Notes under the pieces: model-generated
What the model was told of the DNA's origin: nothing
What the model saw: the letters and a program-made list of their open reading frames with translations, nothing else
Databases searched by the model: none
Sequence record: MN850630.1
Strand: one strand, 5' to 3'
Length of the DNA: 64,000 nucleotides
Source of the DNA: Escherichia phage naam
Shown: positions 2,686 through 38,620 of the stretch, in pieces
How the letters are laid out: the number at the start of each line of letters is the position of its first letter
Position numbering within the stretch: position 1 is the first letter of the stretch
Program-made: the position numbers and the translations under genes

Positions 2686-4664
2686 TCGTAAACAGTAATG
2701 AAACTAAAGCGGTACTAACCGGTAATATGGAGGTCACCAGGGGCTCAATTTCTCTGAACAAAGAGACTTTTGGGCTAATCATTAAAGGGATTTACGAAGA
2801 TAAGGTGCTGGCAAGCTGCCGTGAACCAATCTTCAATGCCGTGGACTCCCATGTTGAGTCTGGACGGGGTGATGTACCGATCATTATTCACTCTCCTACA
2901 GACCTTGAACCATACTTCTTTGTGCAGGACGTCGGATTGGGCATGTCAGAAGAGATGGTCCGCAACACTTTCATGAACCTCGGGGAGTCAACCAAGCGCA
3001 ACAGCAACGCTCTGGTAGGTAATAAAGGTGTTGGTTCAAAGGCTCCGTTCAGCATGGTGGACACTTTCGATGTTATCAGTGTGCACAATGGTGTTGAAAG
3101 CACATATCTATTGTTCTTGGATCAGGGTATCCCAAACGTTACCAAGATCCGTGAGCGGAAGACTGAAGAGCACAACGGGGTAAAAGTTCAGTTCCATGTT
3201 AAGAAAGAGCATGTCCTGAAATATCGCACTGCTATTGCATCGTGCTTACGCTATGCGAAGTTTCCGTTCATCGTCACCGATCCTATGACCAGTAAGATGT
3301 TAGAAGGTGACAAGGTTGAGGCACAGTATCATTACGAGAAGGATGGCTGGAAAATGACCATCCTGAAAGGTTATACCAGTTCTGATGAGAGCCGTGTTGT
3401 GATGGGTCACCAACCTTACCGCTCTAAGTTTCTGGAAACATTGACAGACTACCCTGCAATCTGCGTGGAAATTCCTATTGGGGATTGCAATATTAACCCT
3501 GGGCGTGAATGGACCATAGAGGGCCATGACGACGGTGGATTCCAGGATCGCCTGGAGGCATTTGTTAAAGAAGGTATACGTCTTCGCGGGGCAGAAGTTG
3601 TTGCAGAACTGGAGACGGCAAAAACCTCCGCAGAAGCACGTGAAATGATGAAGAATAGTGGAGTGTTCGGACACATCTTCGGCAAGAACTTTATGTGGAA
3701 CCGTTGGGAAGAAACAGGGCTTGGCGACTTAGGCGATTGTGAAATTTTCGCTGGCGGCTTAAATAAAGGCCGCATAGGCTATGCTCGTTACGGAAAGTCG
3801 GAGTTCTTACGAGGTGTATACCTTGTATTTAACGACGGAGACGGCAAATATAACCGGAATAAGTGTAACTACTTAAGCGAGATCACCGGACGCAACGTTT
3901 TCTATTGCCGGAACACGGATCTGGTGAAAGAGTTTAAAGAGGCGGCACACCATCCGTTCTTTGCAGATACGGTCAAATTGTTATCGGAGCTTCCACGCCG
4001 ACCTGCGAAGAAAGGTGAAACCAAAACTCGTTACGAGCCAGGCTACTGGGTTAAGAAGCTTAGAGAGGATGGCTACTTCCATCGTGAGCGCCTCACGAAG
4101 GCAGAGTTCAAGAAGATTAAGCATTGCATCCCTTATGAGGGGGATATCCAACGGGGAAGCTGCTGGCTGGGCCAGATGAGTAACATCTACCAGCAAAATT
4201 ATGACCGTGTGCGTGCTGCACTCCAGATTCCTGAAGGTGAAGATCTGTACCTGGTATCAGAATCTCGTCTGCTTTGGACTGATCCTGATTGCCAGTATGT
4301 TACAGAGAAGAATGTGGAACATTTGTTGAAAGAGGATGCTTGGAAATTCTTACTGACTCGCGCAGCAAATGAAACTTCATATGACAGCCTATATAGACAA
4401 TTAGGGAAAATTATCCCCATGCAGGATTTTGGAAATTATCGGCCACATTTCCACAAGTGGGAAGGTAACACCGCGTGGAAGCACAGTGAGCTAAATCATC
4501 GTGCCAAAATCTTAATCGCCAACCGGGTTAAGTGCGGGAAGGCCTATATTGCAAGATTGGAAAAGAAATATCCACTTTTGAAGCATGTGGGCTTGAAATA
4601 TTGGGACACTCCTGCTATGATTGAATACCGTGAACTGATCGATACAAAGAATAACATCAAATAA
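2682..4664 (+). CDS. rIIA: rIIA-like protein with N-terminal GHKL (Hsp90/MutL-type) ATPase domain
   Basis: Bergerat-fold motifs: N-box EPIFNAVDS, G1 VQDVGLGMS, NLGESTK, G2 GNKGVGSKAPF; 660 aa with a 401-aa partner immediately downstream, the T4 rIIA/rIIB arrangement. Assignment by inference. Confidence 0.5.
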   Translation: MIVNSNETKAVLTGNMEVTRGSISLNKETFGLIIKGIYEDKVLASCREPIFNAVDSHVESGRGDVPIIIHSPTDLEPYFFVQDVGLGMSEEMVRNTFMNLGESTKRNSNALVGNKGVGSKAPFSMVDTFDVISVHNGVESTYLLFLDQGIPNVTKIRERKTEEHNGVKVQFHVKKEHVLKYRTAIASCLRYAKFPFIVTDPMTSKMLEGDKVEAQYHYEKDGWKMTILKGYTSSDESRVVMGHQPYRSKFLETLTDYPAICVEIPIGDCNINPGREWTIEGHDDGGFQDRLEAFVKEGIRLRGAEVVAELETAKTSAEAREMMKNSGVFGHIFGKNFMWNRWEETGLGDLGDCEIFAGGLNKGRIGYARYGKSEFLRGVYLVFNDGDGKYNRNKCNYLSEITGRNVFYCRNTDLVKEFKEAAHHPFFADTVKLLSELPRRPAKKGETKTRYEPGYWVKKLREDGYFHRERLTKAEFKKIKHCIPYEGDIQRGSCWLGQMSNIYQQNYDRVRAALQIPEGEDLYLVSESRLLWTDPDCQYVTEKNVEHLLKEDAWKFLLTRAANETSYDSLYRQLGKIIPMQDFGNYRPHFHKWEGNTAWKHSELNHRAKILIANRVKCGKAYIARLEKKYPLLKHVGLKYWDTPAMIEYRELIDTKNNIK

Positions 4665-31108: not shown

Positions 31109-31239
31109 GCGTTACAGCGGCCCCAAGGCGCTTAAAAAATTTTTAAAGAAGTACTTGCATCAAGTCCTACAATATGGATAATAGGACGTGTCAGGGGGGC
31201 GGCCCCCAATCATTAACCGGATAGATAGGAGTTAAAATC

Positions 31240-31524
31240 ATGGCTATTGTCACCGTTGGCGATGTAGTGGAAATGGAAGCAAAATACTTAAAAGCGGGTA
31301 TGCATATCCTACGGAATGATCAAGAATTGTTATTAACGATGGTAGACTATAATCCCGGCCAGGATTATCCAAGCATCGACTACTTTTTTGAGTATGTTGA
31401 TGAAGAATTGAAAGAGGATGAGACTTATCAGGGTGAATTCTGCAATTTCTTTTGCCCTGATGAGGTTGTAAAAGTTATCTATCAACCTGGCGTACCTTTC
31501 CCGCTGCACGCTATCAATAAATAA
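31240..31524 (+). CDS. hypothetical protein
   Basis: TAGGAG RBS; 94 aa; followed by hairpin GGCGGGGCC gaaaa GGCCCCCGCC. Confidence 0.6.
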   Translation: MAIVTVGDVVEMEAKYLKAGMHILRNDQELLLTMVDYNPGQDYPSIDYFFEYVDEELKEDETYQGEFCNFFCPDEVVKVIYQPGVPFPLHAINK

Positions 31525-31586
31525 ACCTGGCGGGGCCGAAAAGGCCCCCGCCTGAAATTATGAAAAATAAAAAGAGGCAAACTATC

Positions 31587-31817
31587 ATGATGGAACAAAT
31601 TAAACGCGCTGAGGCTATTAATGGCAATGTGATCTATTTTGTCAGCAATAACGAAAAAGGCGTACCATATGCGGCGGTAATAGTACAGCCTGACGGCAAT
31701 TATTGGTTTACTGTATACGGATCTTATTCTTTCGGGCGTCCGGTGCATGATAGAATTTTAAAAGTAGCGAACCCAACCGGGAAGAATATCACAGCAGAAA
31801 AATTTTTTGAAAAATAG
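31587..31817 (+). CDS. hypothetical protein
   Basis: ATG after AAGAGG (track ORF 31560..31817). Confidence 0.55.
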   Translation: MMEQIKRAEAINGNVIYFVSNNEKGVPYAAVIVQPDGNYWFTVYGSYSFGRPVHDRILKVANPTGKNITAEKFFEK

Positions 31818-31845
31818 TTGACATGGCCTTATAAGACTGTAGAAT
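31818..31845 (+). promoter_or_regulatory. sigma70-like promoter
   Basis: TTGACA, 16-bp spacer, TAGAAT; the track ORF 31818..32072 begins on the -35 TTG. Confidence 0.55.
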
Positions 31846-31892
31846 ATAAATCAAAGGGGCAAGCCCCATCAACGGCAAAGAGGATAAAAATC

Positions 31893-32072
31893 ATGGCTAT
31901 TATTGCAAAGACTGAGATCGTAGGCTTAGATTCTATTCTCCTCGCATATGAGGAAGCTATAGAAATGTATGTGGTTTCCTATGGTGAGTATATCCGTGAA
32001 TATAAATCTATTGATCTGGCTTTTGAATGTTATATTCGCCAGGTTAATAAAGCGTACGATGATTATCGTTAA
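31893..32072 (+). CDS. hypothetical protein
   Basis: ATG after AAAGAGGA, downstream of the promoter; 59 aa. Confidence 0.5.
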   Translation: MAIIAKTEIVGLDSILLAYEEAIEMYVVSYGEYIREYKSIDLAFECYIRQVNKAYDDYR

Positions 32073-32163
32073 AATAGTTTGACAACAAACAACCATCTAA
32101 CAAAGCATAACACATAAGGTGGTAGAATGATCCGCCACCTGGAACAAAGAAGAGGTAAACACC

Positions 32164-32409
32164 ATGAAAAGCAATAAAGGTTATAACGGTTACAAAAACA
32201 AAACTCATTGGAATGTAAGCCTTTGGATTAATAACGATGAGTCCTTGTACCGGTTGGCCCAAGGCTTTATTAACGCTAATGCTAATCGTAATGATGCGGC
32301 GCGGGATATGATGCTTTTTCTGGAGCTAACCGGACAAGATAAGACCCCGGACGGCTTCAAGTACAGCACTACGGCGATCCGTGCCGCGATGGTTGGAATG
32401 AAACACTAA
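32164..32409 (+). CDS. hypothetical protein
   Basis: AAGAGG RBS; 81 aa. Confidence 0.6.
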   Translation: MKSNKGYNGYKNKTHWNVSLWINNDESLYRLAQGFINANANRNDAARDMMLFLELTGQDKTPDGFKYSTTAIRAAMVGMKH

Positions 32410-32486
32410 AAGCACATAGCCGCCTTACCCTGGGGCTGTAGTAGCGGTCCCATGAATAAGGTTACTAACAGAAGAGAATAAACACC

Positions 32487-32591
32487 ATGAAACAGAAATT
32501 AATTGATGCGGTGATCCTGGTTATTGCCCTGGGTATTGGCCTGATTGCAACCATGGCTAATGTGATCTTGTCTTCCAACGGTATCGGGTGA
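32487..32591 (+). CDS. small membrane peptide (34 aa; not in ORF track)
   Basis: ATG after GAAGAGAA; MKQKLIDAVILVIALGIGLIATMANVILSSNGIG. Confidence 0.4.
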   Translation: MKQKLIDAVILVIALGIGLIATMANVILSSNGIG

Positions 32592-32600
32592 GGTTGGCAA

Positions 32601-32816
32601 ATGATCACTAACAAAACAGGCAAAACGGAATTTTTACGCAACTTACAGATCGGCAAGCCTGAGATCTGGTATTGCACTAAAACACCACGTGACGAAATGA
32701 AAGACTTCACCGCCACGCTGCAACGGGTAAAGATATCCATCACGCAGAAAAAGGCCTTATTAGTGGTGGAAGGTGAGATCCCCCAAACCGTTGTTATAGT
32801 TGAACGTACAGCATAG
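32601..32816 (+). CDS. hypothetical protein
   Basis: 71 aa. Confidence 0.5.
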   Translation: MITNKTGKTEFLRNLQIGKPEIWYCTKTPRDEMKDFTATLQRVKISITQKKALLVVEGEIPQTVVIVERTA

Positions 32817-32907
32817 TTTAATTTATACCGATACCTGAAAATTAACCAACAAGGCATAAACAGGCTGTTACCGCCGCCTTAAACGTAGCAGAAAGAGGAT
32901 AGACACA

Positions 32908-33192
32908 ATGAAAAAGATGATCGCAGTGGTTGCCCTGGTTGTTGGACTTAATGCGCCTGTAATGGCTAAAGAGCTGGCAAAAGAGGTTAATCTAACGGAT
33001 ATTCATGCCGTCAATCGAATCGGGGTTACTTATCGCTTATGCCTTGCCGCTAAAACTTTTAAGGACGGCACGACAGAGTACTACGGATTCGAGGGTGTCC
33101 GGTGCGGTGAACTTGCTCGCGACCTTAAGGAAGATCCAGACCTGGAGGATCTGCCCATCACCGTAAACGGGAAAACTTACGTAAACCGTTAA
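32908..33192 (+). CDS. secreted or periplasmic hypothetical protein
   Basis: AAAGAGGA RBS; signal-peptide-like N-terminus MKKMIAVVALVVGLNAPVMA. Confidence 0.6.
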   Translation: MKKMIAVVALVVGLNAPVMAKELAKEVNLTDIHAVNRIGVTYRLCLAAKTFKDGTTEYYGFEGVRCGELARDLKEDPDLEDLPITVNGKTYVNR

Positions 33193-33337
33193 CCATGAGA
33201 AAGATAATTATTACCATGGGGATCGTGGCGGCAATGTTGGCGATCTTTCCCTTTATGGTTAGGTATGTGCTGATTAATGTTGTCCTGGTAGTCAGCGATC
33301 TGGTGTTATATATTAACTCATTGTTTTAGGCGCGATA

Positions 33338-33529
33338 ATGACAGCGGAAGAAGTTAAAAAAGTACTGGCGGTACTGCGTTATCATAATCATTGCAAGGTG
33401 AAGAATGATCCTGATTATCTTGATTCATCCCTTGAAGAGGATACACTACAAGCCATAAGCAACATGCAAGAATTGCTTAAGCGTATGACAGAGAAAAACC
33501 GACCGGACTACATAGGGGGTAAAATATGA
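33338..33529 (+). CDS. hypothetical protein
   Basis: 63 aa. Confidence 0.5.
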   Translation: MTAEEVKKVLAVLRYHNHCKVKNDPDYLDSSLEEDTLQAISNMQELLKRMTEKNRPDYIGGKI

Positions 33530-33837
33530 TCGCTATTACGCCAACCGTTTTAGATTGGTATCGGCAACGCATAGCGCCTCCGCTGGCTATCTTCAAAGAT
33601 GCGGAAGCAAAACAACGCCGGATCTCAATACATGAGATCATCAACCTTAACGCTGGAGGCACACCATACCGCCCAGGACCTGGCCGTGAGATGGACAATA
33701 CGTTAGCGATCCTGAAGATACGCCGTAAACGGTCCTCCCTTACGCTGGACTCATTACACACAATGCAGCCTCCGTTCCAGGTGACCGGGAAACGGATCGC
33801 CAGGTCCTGGACAAAGGCCAATGATCGGACCGTATAA
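33526..33837 (+). CDS. hypothetical protein
   Basis: ATGA coupling; 103 aa. Confidence 0.5.
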   Translation: MIAITPTVLDWYRQRIAPPLAIFKDAEAKQRRISIHEIINLNAGGTPYRPGPGREMDNTLAILKIRRKRSSLTLDSLHTMQPPFQVTGKRIARSWTKANDRTV

Positions 33838-33971
33838 ATAAAAGTGTTTTGGTACTGATTTTGGGGTTGACTTGTTCGGCCCCTTTTGCTATTCTTATTA
33901 AACGGGCGGCACTTGGGAACAGGGGGAGACAATCACCAGGCCTGCCTGTCATATAAGAACTATAAAAACCG

Positions 33972-34000
33972 TTGACATCTGCCATGGGGTGAGGTAACAT
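33972..34000 (+). promoter_or_regulatory. sigma70-like promoter with leader hairpin
   Basis: TTGACA, 17-bp spacer, TAACAT; leader GGGGCAAAAGTGCCC. Confidence 0.5.
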
Positions 34001-34054
34001 TTATCTTGAAGGGGCAAAAGTGCCCACACAACAACCAGAAGAGAGGAAAACATT

Positions 34055-34327
34055 ATGTCAAGCTGGATTAATCAAGAAGTCGAATCACGTTTTAATGCTA
34101 TTTGGGATCTCATCGAAAAAGAGGACGGAACATCAAGCCCTTATCTCAATAATCTTGAATTCCATTTCGTGGAAGCGATGAACGCAGAACATGATCACGA
34201 AGGTGGTGCGGATGAATTCGCTAAAGGATATGGCTTCAACAATGCCAACGAAATGATCGAGGCGGTTGTACTCCAGGCTGAGGAAGATTATCAATTAAAA
34301 ACGCTTGAATTCTGCCGCCGTAAGTAA
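34055..34327 (+). CDS. hypothetical protein
   Basis: AGAGAGGAAAA RBS; 90 aa. Confidence 0.6.
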   Translation: MSSWINQEVESRFNAIWDLIEKEDGTSSPYLNNLEFHFVEAMNAEHDHEGGADEFAKGYGFNNANEMIEAVVLQAEEDYQLKTLEFCRRK

Positions 34328-34389
34328 TAAGATAATGACACGGGCCAAAAGGCCCACTAAACAAAAACCACATAAAGAGGAAAAACATC

Positions 34390-34653
34390 ATGAAACGCCT
34401 TGATCAGCTCAAATTAGTTCAATATATGGCTTATCGTGTTCTTGAAGTCCAGAAAGGTAGCAAAAAAGAGGTTTGCGAGAAAGCTTATAAGATCTTCACT
34501 CGCAAAAAAGATGACTGGATGCTACGCCAGACCAAAAAGGCTGACATCTTGGGGTACCTGGAAGAAGAGATCCGCCTTGAAGAGCAAGAAGAGATCCGCC
34601 GTAGTGAGGCAGATTATCAGGCAGCTTGGGAAAACTGGATGAGCAACAAATAA
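34390..34653 (+). CDS. hypothetical protein
   Basis: AAAGAGGAAAAA RBS; 87 aa. Confidence 0.6.
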   Translation: MKRLDQLKLVQYMAYRVLEVQKGSKKEVCEKAYKIFTRKKDDWMLRQTKKADILGYLEEEIRLEEQEEIRRSEADYQAAWENWMSNK

Positions 34654-34719
34654 TACAACAAGTTACGGTCAGGGGGGTAATAAAGCCCCTTGATCGCATA
34701 AAAATTATGCCATCTCTGG

Positions 34720-34748
34720 TTGACAGGGATCGGCAGTTTTGCTATATT
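34720..34748 (+). promoter_or_regulatory. sigma70-like promoter
   Basis: TTGACA, 17-bp spacer, TATATT. Confidence 0.55.
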
Positions 34749-34797
34749 CTTTTTTGAAGGGAAGTTGTAAGAAAATTAACTAAGAGGTAAAAACACC

Positions 34798-35217
34798 ATG
34801 AACATTAAATCTAATAATCCGGCATATAGCTTTGATAACGCTTTTTGTCACGGTCCGGCGGCGAAAGGATTCGAAATCGATGGTAAACTAATTATTGTCA
34901 ATGTTGACGGGGAAGAGGTTGCAGTATATCCGGTGGCAGACGTAAAAAGCCGTTTACAATGCCGCATGGATGTTACCGCCTATCAGCTTGATCCGGTCCG
35001 CATAGTTGCCCTGGTCCTGGAAGAAGAAATTAAAGCCATGCACCATAGCAACAGATTTATTGGTGACGCGCAGGATAATATGAAAGTATGCCGCCATAAA
35101 GTTAATGAAGTGCTTAAAGAGTACGGCTATAAAGATCTTATGATCAAACGTGAGGAAAAATTCCGCTACCGTAACGACCTGGCAAATCGGATTTTTGAAA
35201 TATACGAATCATTATAA
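34798..35217 (+). CDS. hypothetical protein
   Basis: AAGAGG RBS; 139 aa; last gene of the plus-strand block. Confidence 0.6.
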   Translation: MNIKSNNPAYSFDNAFCHGPAAKGFEIDGKLIIVNVDGEEVAVYPVADVKSRLQCRMDVTAYQLDPVRIVALVLEEEIKAMHHSNRFIGDAQDNMKVCRHKVNEVLKEYGYKDLMIKREEKFRYRNDLANRIFEIYESL

Positions 35218-35235
35218 TTTTTTAACTGAATTATC

Positions 35236-35260
35236 AAGGGGCTTAGGCCCCTTTCTTTTT
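35236..35260 (+). terminator. rho-independent terminator ending the plus-strand block
   Basis: Stem aaggggc / gcccctt then TCTTTTTG. Confidence 0.65.
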
Positions 35261-35878
35261 GTCTGCTCTTCCCCCTACCATAAACGGCCCTACCTGGCAA
35301 GTGGAATAATTGACGAGCCATCAATCCTACACACTGTACAAACATACATGTAAAATAGCTATTGCATAACCTTTCATTGTGTGGTAGCGGTGCTATTTTT
35401 TACCAGTTTTCCTTCCAAAATTGCACGTAATGCCGCTATTGCACAAATTTTAACCTGATGCACATCTCCAATATCTTGTCAACAACTAAAAATCTTTATA
35501 AGTCATACACTTACACAGCATCGAAAGCGTGTTCTACGCGAAAAATCGAGTATAACTATAGCCGCCAGATCTCAGAATTCACGTACGCACGCCATTCTAT
35601 AGCCTGCAAAGTATTTATTCCAACCACAGAATAACGGAATAGTCAATACCTGCATAAAATAATTATTAGTGTAAACTGCATAACATAAATCAGCTCAGGT
35701 GTCAACATTTTTCGTAAACAGTCCGAAATTATCACGATGAGTTATCATAAACAGAGAAATCTTTAGTCGTCTAATGTTTACTGTACATTACTATACTGAC
35801 TGGAATCATTAGATGACTAAGAGAAAGATAAGAAATAATTAATAATGTAATTGTTTTACCTGTAACAATAAGGCAACT

Positions 35879-35898
35879 ATGCAAACGAATGGCATGGC
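35879..35898 (+). repeat. 20-bp direct repeat ATGCAAACGAATGGCATGGC, copy 1
   Basis: Exact second copy at 36140..36159. Confidence 0.7.
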
Positions 35899-36015
35899 GC
35901 GACGGAGTCGCGACATAATATAAAAGCAGTAACCATCACCCCCGTGATAGTTTGTCTGCAATCTATTAATCAGATCATAGTTGCCTTGTATTCAGTTAAT
36001 CATGACATGATAAGC

Positions 36016-36047
36016 AAGGCAACTATAGATCTTCTAATAGTTGCCCT
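36016..36047. repeat. palindromic site GGCAACTAT-N10-ATAGTTGCC
   Basis: Further copies of the arm at about 35870 (AAGGCAACTAT) and 35977 (ATAGTTGCCTT); operator-like or iteron-like. Confidence 0.55.
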
Positions 36048-36170
36048 GCTTTTATATTATGTCATAGAAACACCCGAAGGGGTGACCAAAGGTCACCTGG
36101 CATAGCCAGTGAAAGATTATTAACTTGCTAATAGTTATCATGCAAACGAATGGCATGGCTGATTATCGGT

Positions 36171-36257
36171 GTGTAAACAGTCAATCATGTAAATGGTTAG
36201 CATGTGAACAATCAGAAATGTAAACAATCCAGTGTGTAAACTAATAGGTGTGTAAAA
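36171..36257 (+). repeat. cluster of (G)TGTAAAC(A) repeats
   Basis: GTGTAAACAG, ATGTAAACAA, TGTGTAAAC and GTGTAAAAG within 90 bp; further GTAAACAG at about 35714, 36511 and 37221, and on the minus strand at about 36368. Confidence 0.55.
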
Positions 36258-36851
36258 GTGTCATGTTGTGTCAGTTAGGTCACATTATGTCAGACAAGTT
36301 TTTCTCCTCTTTGTCAAGTGCTGCATGAAAAATTTACAAGCTTGTATGGTAGCATTTTTGCGGCCCTGTTTACATTCAGTGTTGTATGTATAATCCTTGT
36401 TGTGTGGGCGTTTAGACGTCTGGACGGTCAGAAGTCTGCAGGTTAATATCTAATCTATCGGCTGCTAACTATATCCCACACAAATAGTAAGAAATATAAT
36501 TGTTATGTGCGTAAACAGTAACCCATGTTATCAATCCCTGTATGTATCGCCAGTGGTGCGCATAATGGGTATTATGTTAAATTGCCCGTAATGATAACAG
36601 TTCTCACAATGATAGGTATTCTCATTCACCCCCACAAGATAGGTTGCAAATGTTGTGCCACTGTGTGAACGGCCTGGCCTATTAATTTGCCTCACTGCCT
36701 TGATATTTGAGAATTATTATAAGAATGAGAAGTATTCCCATTTCGTCCGCCTGGCAGCACTCCTGTAGGTCAGGTCAAAATCGTGGTAGAACTAGACCTA
36801 TCCGGATATTTCTGGCTGACTCTTCAGGTCTGTGTGGGAAAAGCCAACCTC

Positions 36852-36866
36852 TCCGGCGGGGCAGGG
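36852..36866 (+). repeat. 15-bp GC-rich direct repeat TCC(C)GGCGGGGCAGGG, copy 1
   Basis: Second copy at 36999..37015; CTCTTCAGG recurs at about 36820, 36904 and 37351. Confidence 0.5.
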
Positions 36867-37710
36867 GGAGGTCAATTAAAAAATTTACGTGGTGTATGAA
36901 GCGCTCTTCAGGTAAGGCAGGTATTATGGGATGAAACCCGCTTCAGGCAATGATATTTGTGGGTGTGATATTTGCTGGAAGGCCAGATATGACGGGACTC
37001 CCGGCGGGGCAGGGGTAGTACAGACAGGGAAAATATGGGGATGTAGTTGGGGAAATTGATCAGACAGGTAGAGTATGGAATATGTTACAGGTATGTTAAA
37101 TATGGAGGTTGAATATCTGTAGGATTTGTGTGTAAAATCAAAGACTTAAGGGGTGTTGTGGTATTTTCTATAAATAATTCAAGTTTAATAGGCAATATTT
37201 GTCTCTATCCGCTTTGTGTGGTAAACAGATTCAGATGAGATTGGTTTACAAGTGTATACATAATATACAAATTAAAGATACAAGAAACCCCCCTCCCCCT
37301 TCGGCTACCATTCACCTTTTCCTCTGACTGGTACTTAAACACTTATTCAGACTCTTCAGGTTATCACCCATATATCATATGGCAGTGACTGGTGTCCTCC
37401 GGCCCCTCTTTCGTCACCCGTCCGCTTCGCCATGCTAATGCCATAGCTAATGGTTCGGTTGTTCACCCTGTTCACTCAGGTGTATCTCTATACCCCTTCA
37501 AACCGAAGAGAACAGAAAACCCGAATTACTCGGTAAAAGAAAAGAGAAGAACTTAATTTTATCAGGATAGGCAAGAATGTCAAGGCATGACTGCTCACTA
37601 AACAAGCAAACAGTCATGTGTGGGAGGTAAGTGATTGTGGTGGTAGGAAATTTAGTTGAAAGATGTGTTATAGGTGCTTCCAGCACTTTAGCCGGGCAGC
37701 TAATTGTGTG

Positions 37711-37926
37711 TCAGTCCAGCGGTTCATCCTCTACTTCACTGAAATCAATGTTCATGGTCTCTTCCCAACCATCGATCTCAGCACAAGAGTGGAGTTCTTT
37801 AGGGTTTACTCCCAAAGCCTCAGCAACAGAGTCTATATTTAACACCTCTGGCAGGTATGATTCATCGAATTCAAGGTAAATCAGGCCACGAGTGTTGTCA
37901 GCTCCACCAAATATCTCTATCTTCAT
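37711..37926 (-). CDS. small acidic protein (MK[IV][EK] paralog family)
   Basis: MKIEIFGG N-terminus, acidic C-terminus; most downstream gene of the minus-strand block. Confidence 0.55.
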   Translation of the reverse strand: MKIEIFGGADNTRGLIYLEFDESYLPEVLNIDSVAEALGVNPKELHSCAEIDGWEETMNIDFSEVEDEPLD

Positions 37927-38047
37927 AAAATCTCCTCTGGGAATGAGAGTGTGAACAGGGTTTTATACGTTCCAATACGCTGGAATTATGCACGTTTGCC
38001 TCTTCAGGCCATGCTTTAGCATGAGGAACCTGTGTGGGCTCGGTGCT

Positions 38048-38260
38048 TCATAGTCTACCACCTCTGAACTCTTCGTGCTCAGGCATAATAGAGAACCAGA
38101 TATCTACGATGTCCTCCCACGTCAGGTCATCAGCCTCAGGATCTGTCTGGGACGAAGATGAAGAGTCCTCAGAATCTAAGTTTTCCTCTTTAACTGGCTC
38201 ATCCAAGGGACATATGGTCACTCCTTTGGATGTCTCTTCAGATGCATGTGTGTTGATCAT
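38048..38260 (-). CDS. highly acidic small protein
   Basis: 70 aa, strongly D/E/S-rich (DSEDSSSSSQTDPEADD). Confidence 0.5.
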   Translation of the reverse strand: MINTHASEETSKGVTICPLDEPVKEENLDSEDSSSSSQTDPEADDLTWEDIVDIWFSIMPEHEEFRGGRL

Positions 38261-38620
38261 GTCCCACCTGTGAGTATTCCGGCAACAGCCGCTATGGACG
38301 TAATGATCATCAGGATCACCACTAAAACTTCGGACAATGTTCTCATTGTGTATTCCATATTCTACAAACTATGTGTGGATACTATCACGAGAGCGGTAAT
38401 GTGTCAACAGAAACGCCGCGAGGGTTTGGTTAAAATCCGAGCGTATGGTGATTTGGGTCAAAACGGACGTGCGTTCTCGCTACGCTCGAAAGAGAGATTT
38501 GTTTGTAGGAAGCTCTTAAACGCTCTGTAATGAGATTATCTGTCCAAGGTATGCAATCGTGCACCAGATAAAGAAAAGGACGCCACAGAGCGTCCTAGGT
38601 GTCTTAAATTTGATATTTTG

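Follow-up and report, generated by a model that had tools for sequence, protein, structure and literature searches.

The 2.4-kb gap between convergent gene blocks in Escherichia phage naam as the probable genome-terminus region of a short-terminal-repeat vequintavirus

The DNA analysed here is a window of 64,000 nucleotides from Escherichia phage naam (sequence record MN850630.1), in which the region 35261-37710 forms a gap between two convergent gene blocks. This region is very probably the genome-terminus (concatemer-junction) region of a phage with a short direct terminal repeat (DTR), and it is best modelled as a junction of the T7 type. The 459-bp DTR of vequintaviruses maps to 36293-36751, in the middle of the region, and of the functions that the initial annotation had offered for the gap, a packaging or terminus signal was thus the right one. 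The repeat itself is already known from the literature and from GenBank annotation, and what seems to be new is confined to descriptive details of the flanks. The affiliation of the phage is given by the 2.55 kb around the gap, which match 121 phage records with 88-96% identity, all of them from Vequintavirus, the rV5-like myoviruses of Escherichia coli.

The placement of the DTR is based on the ends of sequence records of related phages. A search with the sequence 36293-36751 alone hit 127 places in 119 records, and a single internal copy is present in the window and in 111 of these 119 records. In the records of the close relatives Gotham, HdK5, EdH4, and ECP2309, positions 1-459 correspond to positions 1-459 of the DTR query and a second copy is located at the other record end. 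Two features of the short-DTR class are seen, namely the same sequence at both linear ends in these four relatives and one repeat copy per genome unit in a circularised assembly in the window. The EdH4 record starts at the equivalent of 36751 and finishes at that of 36293, so that its ends overlap by exactly 459 identical bases, and the GenBank record of Gotham carries a repeat_region at 1-459 and 136567-137025, i.e. the DTR at both record ends. Among the matches listed by the search with the whole region, five independent records break at 36293 (query position 1094) and two at 36751. The copy in the window is 95-98% identical to the 459-bp repeats of the relatives, with both edges intact; for the published repeats of EdH4, HdK5, and Gotham, the identity is 97-98%. 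Short terminal redundancies of 458 bp have been reported for EdH4 and HdK5 (Korf 2019, PMC6563267), and a start that is fixed for all virions has been reported for Gotham (Dias 2020, PMC7471380).

Short-read assemblers are known to place collapsed short DTRs in the middle of contigs (PMC10438801). The single DTR copy lies mid-sequence because the window is a circularly joined assembly, and accordingly one virion end begins with base 36293, whereas the other finishes with base 36751. Non-coding DNA extends for about 1.0 kb on each side of the DTR, and transcription of the two terminal gene blocks runs outward to the genome ends. In virion DNA, the outer left flank of the region lies inward of the right genome end. 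In the record of Shigella phage CM1 (1287-2268 of the analysed stretch), two DTR copies are separated by 64 bp, the first of which ends exactly at 36751. The record of phage I29 (about 2100-2160 of the analysed stretch) duplicates the sequence corresponding to 36535-37077 of the window and includes a 60-bp inverted piece. Both duplications are likely assembly artefacts made at the collapsed junction. Within the DTR, TTCTCA/TGAGAA motifs are found in both orientations at about 36593-36733. Near these motifs, at about 36565-36600 of the window, the records of navn (4368-4403) and naswa (4364-4397 of the analysed stretches) carry a 34-36-bp repeat_region, an annotation that occurs in several records of a Danish wastewater phage set.

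The two edges are also visible in the pattern of conservation. For this, 13 genomes were aligned, comprising the window, navn, naswa, JEP1, rV5, Murica, ECP26, ECP32, phita32, typing phage 14, EdH4, Pr121LW, and one IMG/VR contig. Column conservation amounts to 94-99% inside the DTR and to 92-98% in the outer flanks, but only 28-67% is reached, in the presence of numerous gaps, in 35998-36297 and 36748-36797, and the value for 36848-36897 is 65%. Hypervariable DNA with insertions and deletions begins within 0-8 bp of both DTR edges. A conserved interior bordered by variable DNA just outside both edges provides independent sequence-level support for the two edges, and it suggests that the DNA beside the cut sites turns over quickly. 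The junction words themselves are conserved, with ...GTCA/GACAAG (...GTCA/GACAAGTTTTT...) at the left edge in all 13 genomes and ...CGTCCGCC/TGGCAGCA... at the right edge, the slash marking the edge. The published termini papers (Korf 2019; Dias 2020) give only the length of the repeat and the rV5 paper notes only the absence of open reading frames (ORFs). A link of the rV5 non-coding box described below to the termini, the flanking arrays, the hypervariable edges, the palindrome, and the invariant block was not found in the vequintavirus termini papers or in the rV5 paper.

Several points count against this placement of the genome ends. The ends of phage naam are deduced from the records of relatives, whose DTR is 95-98% identical, and most GenBank records were opened elsewhere and are hence silent on the ends. 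The rV5 genome was described as circularly permuted on the basis of 3.6x Sanger coverage (PMC3606486), and a 2026 paper gives a PhageTerm headful call for one vequintavirus, which was derived from phage-cocktail sequencing (PMC13211470). Both reports would agree with headful packaging from a pac site and circular permutation, in which case the 459-bp repeat would be an assembly artefact. However, identical 459-bp ends with the same two edges are found in records from several independent laboratories, and an overlap artefact of an assembler would not yield the same two edges and the same length of 459 bp every time. In addition, the start was fixed for all virions in the study of Dias 2020 (PMC7471380), coverage over the DTR was twofold in Klebsiella phage KPP-1 (PMC9862379), and the hypervariable DNA starts exactly at the edges. 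Permuted ends and the lack of a fixed right end, by which headful packaging is defined, are not seen when judged on the records that share 36293 and 36751. The agreement of the ends across several laboratories is accordingly weighted more heavily than the reports of permuted or headful-packaged genomes, and packaging by the headful mechanism is regarded as highly improbable. A scan of IMG/VR with the DTR-edge word returned only one contig, in which the match is internal.

The DNA on both sides of the DTR is non-coding. All ORFs within the region are at most 75 amino acids (aa) long, most of them are not intact across the 13 genomes, and none shows an excess of variable sites at third codon positions. 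By contrast, such a coding signature is evident in the 71-aa gene that follows the region on the minus strand (37711-37926), with 7/4/29 variable sites by codon position. The description of the stretch as ORF-free in the initial annotation was therefore borne out, and the alignment with related phages, which had been proposed as a check, revealed no conserved coding ORF at the syntenic position. Small conserved ORFs, including those annotated in Murica, JEP1, CM1, and Gotham, were considered and rejected on the basis of codon-position counts and broken frames. In the 121 related GenBank records, the approximately 2.5 kb at this place are essentially unannotated or carry sporadic and mutually inconsistent hypothetical protein calls. 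The same 2.5-kb gap is represented by a grey non-coding box between genes 163 and 164 in the rV5 genome paper, which offered no function for it (Kropinski 2013, PMC3606486). The rV5 authors also searched in vain for the bidirectional terminator that they expected between these genes (PMC3606486). An intrinsic terminator of the plus-strand block, which had been predicted at about 35.25 kb, is indeed present (Table 1). It follows the 139-aa gene that precedes the region (34798-35217, plus strand), is equivalent to t164 of rV5 (rV5 Table S4), and is annotated in Murica and Gotham. Scans for tRNA and tmRNA genes gave no results, and Tandem Repeats Finder reported just one trivial 12-bp repeat with 2 copies.

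Table 1. Features in and next to the region 35261-37710 (window positions)
Feature	Position	Strand	Description
Intrinsic terminator of plus-strand gene block	35236-35253	+	7-bp stem with 5 GC pairs, followed by T run
Conserved non-coding outer left flank	35261-35860		92-97% column conservation in 13 genomes; no coding signature
Compound (branched) palindrome module	35870-36063		18-bp perfect outer arms 35912-35929 / 36046-36063
20-bp exact direct repeat ATGCAAACGAATGGCATGGC, copy 1	35879-35898	+	Left bracket of palindrome module; conserved in all 13 genomes
Variable cassette	36064-36139		Three small GC-rich hairpins CACCCGAAGGGGTG, GGTGACCAAAGGTCACC, CTGGCATAGCCAG; present, absent or replaced depending on phage
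20-bp direct repeat, copy 2	36140-36159	+	Just before iteron array
Iteron array, six TGTRAAN units (consensus GTRAAYNRT)	36172-36259	+	Units at 36172, 36188, 36203, 36219, 36235, 36251; 15-16 bp period
Four GTCA units	36260-36292	+	Units at 36260, 36270, 36279, 36289; 9-10 bp period; last unit ends at left DTR edge
459-bp direct terminal repeat (DTR)	36293-36751		Placed by record ends, Gotham annotation and literature; starts GACAAGTTTTTCTCC, ends CCCATTTCGTCCGCC
Right DTR edge context	36752-36797		Conserved word TGGCAGCA, then indel hot spot (cassette length 0 to about 80 bp)
G-rich right flank	36818-37110	+	CKCTTCAGG motifs, CCGGCGGGGCAGGGG direct repeat, CAGACAGG-type repeats
Near-invariant 340-bp block	37285-37625		95-100% identity across 118 records; left boundary sharply defined at CCCCCCTCCCCC
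Orphan sigma-70-like promoter TTGACA-N16-TGATAAAAT	37583-37556	-	11 of 12 consensus positions, extended -10; inside invariant block

The left flank is characterized by a branched palindrome, the arms of which enclose hairpins as well as AAGGCAACTAT sites; four such sites in alternating orientation are located at 35870, 35977, 36016, and 36037. The T-rich tail CTGCTTTTATATTATGTC occurs behind each of two inner hairpins, once on either strand, so that the module can also be read as two back-to-back intrinsic terminators. The module as a whole is bracketed by the two copies of the exact 20-bp direct repeat. As single-stranded DNA, the palindrome folds with -60 kcal/mol (z score -8.95). In a sliding scan for RNA folding it reached z scores of -5 to -8 on both strands and was the sole part of the region that folded far better than shuffled sequences. 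As it folds equally on both strands, a feature at the DNA level is favoured over a strand-specific RNA. The arms of the palindrome are conserved, and rV5 and phita32 carry a 33-bp insertion at its centre. A terminator-like site is found on the minus strand in the adjacent hairpin cassette (36084-36071). The GTRAAYNRT array differs between phages in sequence and copy number, with strict-motif matches ranging from 1 in navn to 9 in rV5, and the distance between the 20-bp repeat and the left DTR edge varies from 132 to 231 bp.

All repeat families listed in the initial annotation proved to be real and locally enriched. For GTRAACWRT, 5 of 11 matches in the window lie inside the region. With up to 1 mismatch, AAGGCAACTAT matches 8 times, compared to 1.5 matches expected in the whole window, and 4 of the 8 fall within 35870-36047; for CTCTTCAGG, 3 of 5 matches lie inside the region (0.4 expected). 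The motif GTAAACAG had been counted five times. The repeat as such is confirmed, and its count is better given as the six TGTRAAN units of the array with their period of 15-16 bp, together with isolated copies at 35714 and 36511. The 20-bp direct repeat at 35879 and 36140 is exact, as claimed, and the proposed inverted repeats were found as well, e.g. in the form of the 18-bp perfect pair that constitutes the palindrome arms. For the GC-rich direct repeat of the right flank, CCGGCGGGGCAGGGG, the length had been given as 15 bp at 36852 and 36999; it is a genuine repeat, which measures 18 bp and is located at 36853 and 37001. The claimed strand asymmetry is reflected in a sign change of the GC skew, which amounts to +0.24 to +0.59 over 36800-37199 and to about -0.3 over 37300-37499.

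The repeats and the base composition of the left flank could also be regarded as parts of a replication origin, at which a phage initiator would bind the GTRAAYNRT iterons or the AAGGCAACTAT sites, low-GC DNA would melt, and the palindrome or the orphan promoter would aid priming. Such an origin, which could coexist with a terminus, is unlikely, even though the region combines a direct-repeat array with multiple inverted sites, contains its lowest GC content (31-34%, with 31-33% as the lowest values of the whole window) over 35600-35899 in the outer left flank, shows strong conservation of non-coding DNA, and possesses an orphan promoter. Direct-repeat arrays beside lower-GC DNA and inverted repeats are also known from iteron-type origins of plasmids or lambda-like phages, and T7 has secondary origins near its ends. 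The typical period of iteron origins is 11 or 22 bp, whereas the array has a period of 15-16 bp and is thus not helically phased. Furthermore, it is the least conserved part of the region, varies in copy number, and ends at the terminase cut site, and the DNA with the lowest GC content is 270-570 bp away from it. No DnaA box is present within 31181-38374, and the neighbouring genes all encode small proteins of unknown function according to Pfam and PHROGs, so that no Rep-like initiator gene is found beside the iterons. The cumulative GC skew changes direction here, which would suit an origin, but, as the rV5 authors noted (PMC3606486), this is also the point at which the orientation of the genes changes. 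The origin option of the initial annotation has consequently gained no positive support. Literature searches on rV5-like phages returned nothing relevant on transcriptomics, iterons, or an origin. Across the 64-kb window, 32 DnaA-box-like 9-mers (TTATCCACA, up to 1 mismatch) were counted compared to 18.5 expected, a number that was reached by no shuffle.

The right flank begins with an indel hot spot and continues with G-rich DNA, in which CKCTTCAGG mini-hairpin motifs occur at 36820, 36904, and 36939 and CAGACAGG-type repeats at 37019, 37059, and 37086; a variable insert is located at 36866-36885. In the whole window, CKCTTCAGG is present in 5 copies (also at 37352 and 38000) compared to 0.4 expected, often within a mini-hairpin of 3-4 bp (e.g. 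GACTCTTCAGGTC). In this phage as well as in KPP-1 (1998, 2050, 3404, and 3620 of the analysed stretch), the motif is repeatedly found close to the DTR and in spacers between genes. Farther to the right, the near-invariant block has about 4% variable columns compared to 18% in the neighbouring gene, and its left boundary is sharp even in Pr121LW, which is scrambled just beside the block. An origin of this block from the host was considered and rejected, as no match was obtained in 5,426 E. coli genomes. The orphan promoter within the block faces the DTR and has conserved hexamers and no gene downstream. Its form equals that of the rV5 promoters P036, P051, and P074, and the rV5 promoter table has no entry in the non-coding box.

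Transcription from this promoter could produce a non-coding RNA of about 260 nt or longer, which would be read leftward through the block and act early, and the DTR or the left flank might give rise to further RNAs. This possibility is suggested by the facts that the promoter, the strongest sigma-70-like site of the region, has no downstream gene, that it has the form of known rV5 promoters, and that the block is more conserved than adjacent genes. Nevertheless, it is rather improbable that such an RNA is the function of the region. The block has no Rfam match and no convincing ORF, its fold energy does not differ from that of shuffled sequences for either strand (z scores -1.25 and 0.0), no signal rises in the sliding scan between 36120 and 37560, and no clear terminator marks a 3' end. 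In addition, the block varies too little for covariation to be assessed, and a site at the DNA level would explain its conservation equally well. With Rfam 15 at gathering thresholds, no match was obtained in the whole window, and at E<5 only two chance-level matches were found in the region; these best sub-threshold matches, with 26.5 bits compared to a gathering threshold of 49 and 19.9 bits compared to 110, both lie on the palindrome. The structured RNA that had been proposed as a further option in the initial annotation is thus not supported, all the more as the sole strongly folding segment is the palindrome, which folds equally on both strands.

In T7-like phages, concatemers contain one repeat per unit and the second copy is synthesised (PMC10438801). 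By analogy with T7-type phages, replication of the present phage would lead to head-to-tail concatemers with one repeat per junction. The terminase would recognise the junction and cut at two fixed edges, ...GTCA/GACAAG... and ...CGTCCGCC/TGGCAGCA..., and duplication of the repeat by DNA synthesis would result in two copies per packaged genome. Probable binding sites of the terminase or of accessory proteins are the phased GTCA units and the GTRAAYNRT array, which reach up to the left cut site, as well as the TTCTCA motifs in the repeat. For the branched palindrome, which lies 230-380 bp beyond the left edge, candidate roles are a hairpin intermediate in repeat duplication and/or a back-to-back terminator that shields the junction, and the orphan promoter in the invariant block may send transcription across the junction from the right. 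Counterparts of these elements are known from T7. Its short-repeat arrays SRL and SRR reportedly abut the terminal repeat, an inverted repeat to the left of the junction is said to yield a hairpin end during processing, and the orphan promoters phiOL and phiOR are located near the junction. On the basis of these counterparts, the arrays and TTCTCA motifs are read as protein-binding sites for end recognition, the palindrome as a hairpin or terminator involved in processing of the junction, and the promoter as the starting point of transcription across it. These roles are analogies that mark candidates only, which has to be set against the terminus assignment in its extended form. It is conceivable, albeit in a tentative manner, that the flanks constitute a conserved, undescribed end-processing apparatus of large short-DTR myoviruses (Vequintavirinae, Stephanstirmvirinae), with the palindrome as hairpin intermediate or primer for repeat duplication and the fast-evolving phased arrays as phage-specific landing pads for the terminase. 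As a separate part of this tentative idea, the invariant block with its promoter could encode a novel non-coding RNA of the early phase, or it could be the site that is actually recognised for packaging.

Turning to the neighbouring genes, eight flanking proteins have no Pfam match and belong only to PHROGs families of unknown function. The 139-aa protein is a member of PHROG 12277 (function unknown) and is missing from the vequintaviruses EdH4 and Gotham. Homologs with 85-91% identity are encoded in Phapecoctavirus (subfamily Stephanstirmvirinae), about 1 kb from the record ends as the last gene before the genome end. To judge from this distribution, it looks like a horizontally exchanged gene beside the terminus. 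The spacer in front of it (34640-34759) folds well on the plus strand (z score -4.4) and contains the near-consensus promoter-like site TTGACA-17-TATATT at 34720-34748, which by its position probably corresponds to the rV5 promoter P164. Among the database records, 19 entries of the MG0656xx series are named Campylobacter phage with C. jejuni as host, and they are 90-94% identical to this region of an E. coli vequintavirus; these records are probably mislabelled or contaminated.

Placing the DTR at 36293-36751 has several practical consequences. Most vequintavirus records, probably including that of the window, are arbitrarily opened circles, and some contain junction artefacts (CM1, I29). With the DTR placed, these therapy-candidate phages can be correctly oriented and annotated, and the non-coding box on the rV5 map, which dates from 2013, is explained. 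The flanks offer candidate cis-acting packaging signals, namely the variable arrays next to the edges, the palindrome, whose structure appears conserved across genera, and the invariant block with its promoter, for a widespread group of myoviruses of E. coli, Klebsiella, and Salmonella, and such candidates are relevant to phage engineering and to transducing or packaging systems. No general concept is changed by these findings, and their interest is modest, the new parts being descriptive.

A similar organization is found in two other genera. KPP-1 (Mydovirus, Vequintavirinae) has a 514-bp DTR at 116316-116829, for which a T7-type call by PhageTerm and twofold coverage were reported (PMC9862379). 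In the Phapecoctavirus Mt1B1_P17, an exact 328-bp repeat is present at both record ends, and the 139-aa gene homolog precedes its start by 917 bp. As in the window, both DTRs lie in a gene-poor gap, here of 1.5-1.9 kb, which in KPP-1 is the meeting point of two convergent blocks and in Mt1B1_P17 follows the 139-aa gene homolog. The genes beyond the DTR differ in orientation, as they read inward in Mt1B1_P17, from 285 bp beyond the DTR, and not outward as in the window. All three genera have a branched palindrome at a distance of 190-510 bp from one DTR edge, on its outer side, and the z scores for DNA folding are -8.6 to -11.7. It has 18-nt perfect arms separated by 116 nt in the window (35912-36063), 21-nt perfect arms separated by 164 nt in KPP-1 (4139-4344 of the analysed stretch; z score -11.7), and 24-nt arms with 83% identity separated by 98 nt in Mt1B1_P17 (516-661 of the analysed stretch; z score -8.6). 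Its structure, and not its sequence, appears to be conserved across the three genera.

This structural parallel is stronger than the evidence from shared motifs. In KPP-1 and in the window, CTTGACAA is followed by a purine run that ends at one DTR edge, and AATGATAnnTATTCTCATTC is found inside the DTRs of Mt1B1_P17 and the window; the recurrence of CTTGACAA, AATGATAnnTATTCTCATTC, and CKCTTCAGG between genera is weak evidence of a relationship. Two further points at this level count against the terminus assignment. No significant nucleotide homology between the junctions was detected by BLAST to KPP-1, Mt1B1_P17, and ESCO5 or by nhmmer (E at least 0.15), and the best local alignment between DTRs is marginal, with a score of 30 compared to a shuffle maximum of 29, so that shared edge motifs could be due to chance. 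Inspected by eye, the palindromes of KPP-1 and Mt1B1_P17 do not reproduce the terminator pair of the inner hairpins. The junctions share 19 10-mers, which is no more than the shuffle maximum, and visual inspection of the displayed flanks of the two phages revealed no GTRAAYNRT array. An attempt to orient KPP-1 by homology of its flanking proteins gave no matches.

Compared to T7, the terminus region differs in several respects. The present phage is a contractile-tailed myovirus with a genome of 136-140 kb and without a phage RNA polymerase, its repeat is three times longer, and its non-coding region, with 2.45 kb, is twice as long. The early genes of T7 read inward from the left end, whereas both adjacent blocks of the present phage point outward, an arrangement of terminal genes that departs from the T7 layout. 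The GTRAAYNRT and GTCA units are unrelated to the CCTAAAG units of T7. The overall organization is nevertheless shared, since T7 also has short-repeat arrays beside the repeat, orphan promoters near the junction, and an inverted repeat to the left of it. T7-like phages with DTRs of 160-235 bp likewise combine a short exact DTR and fixed ends with non-coding DNA on both sides. In the T7-like phage AP5, the DTR comprises 235 bp, the first gene begins at 1017, and the last gene ends about 260 bp before the right DTR.

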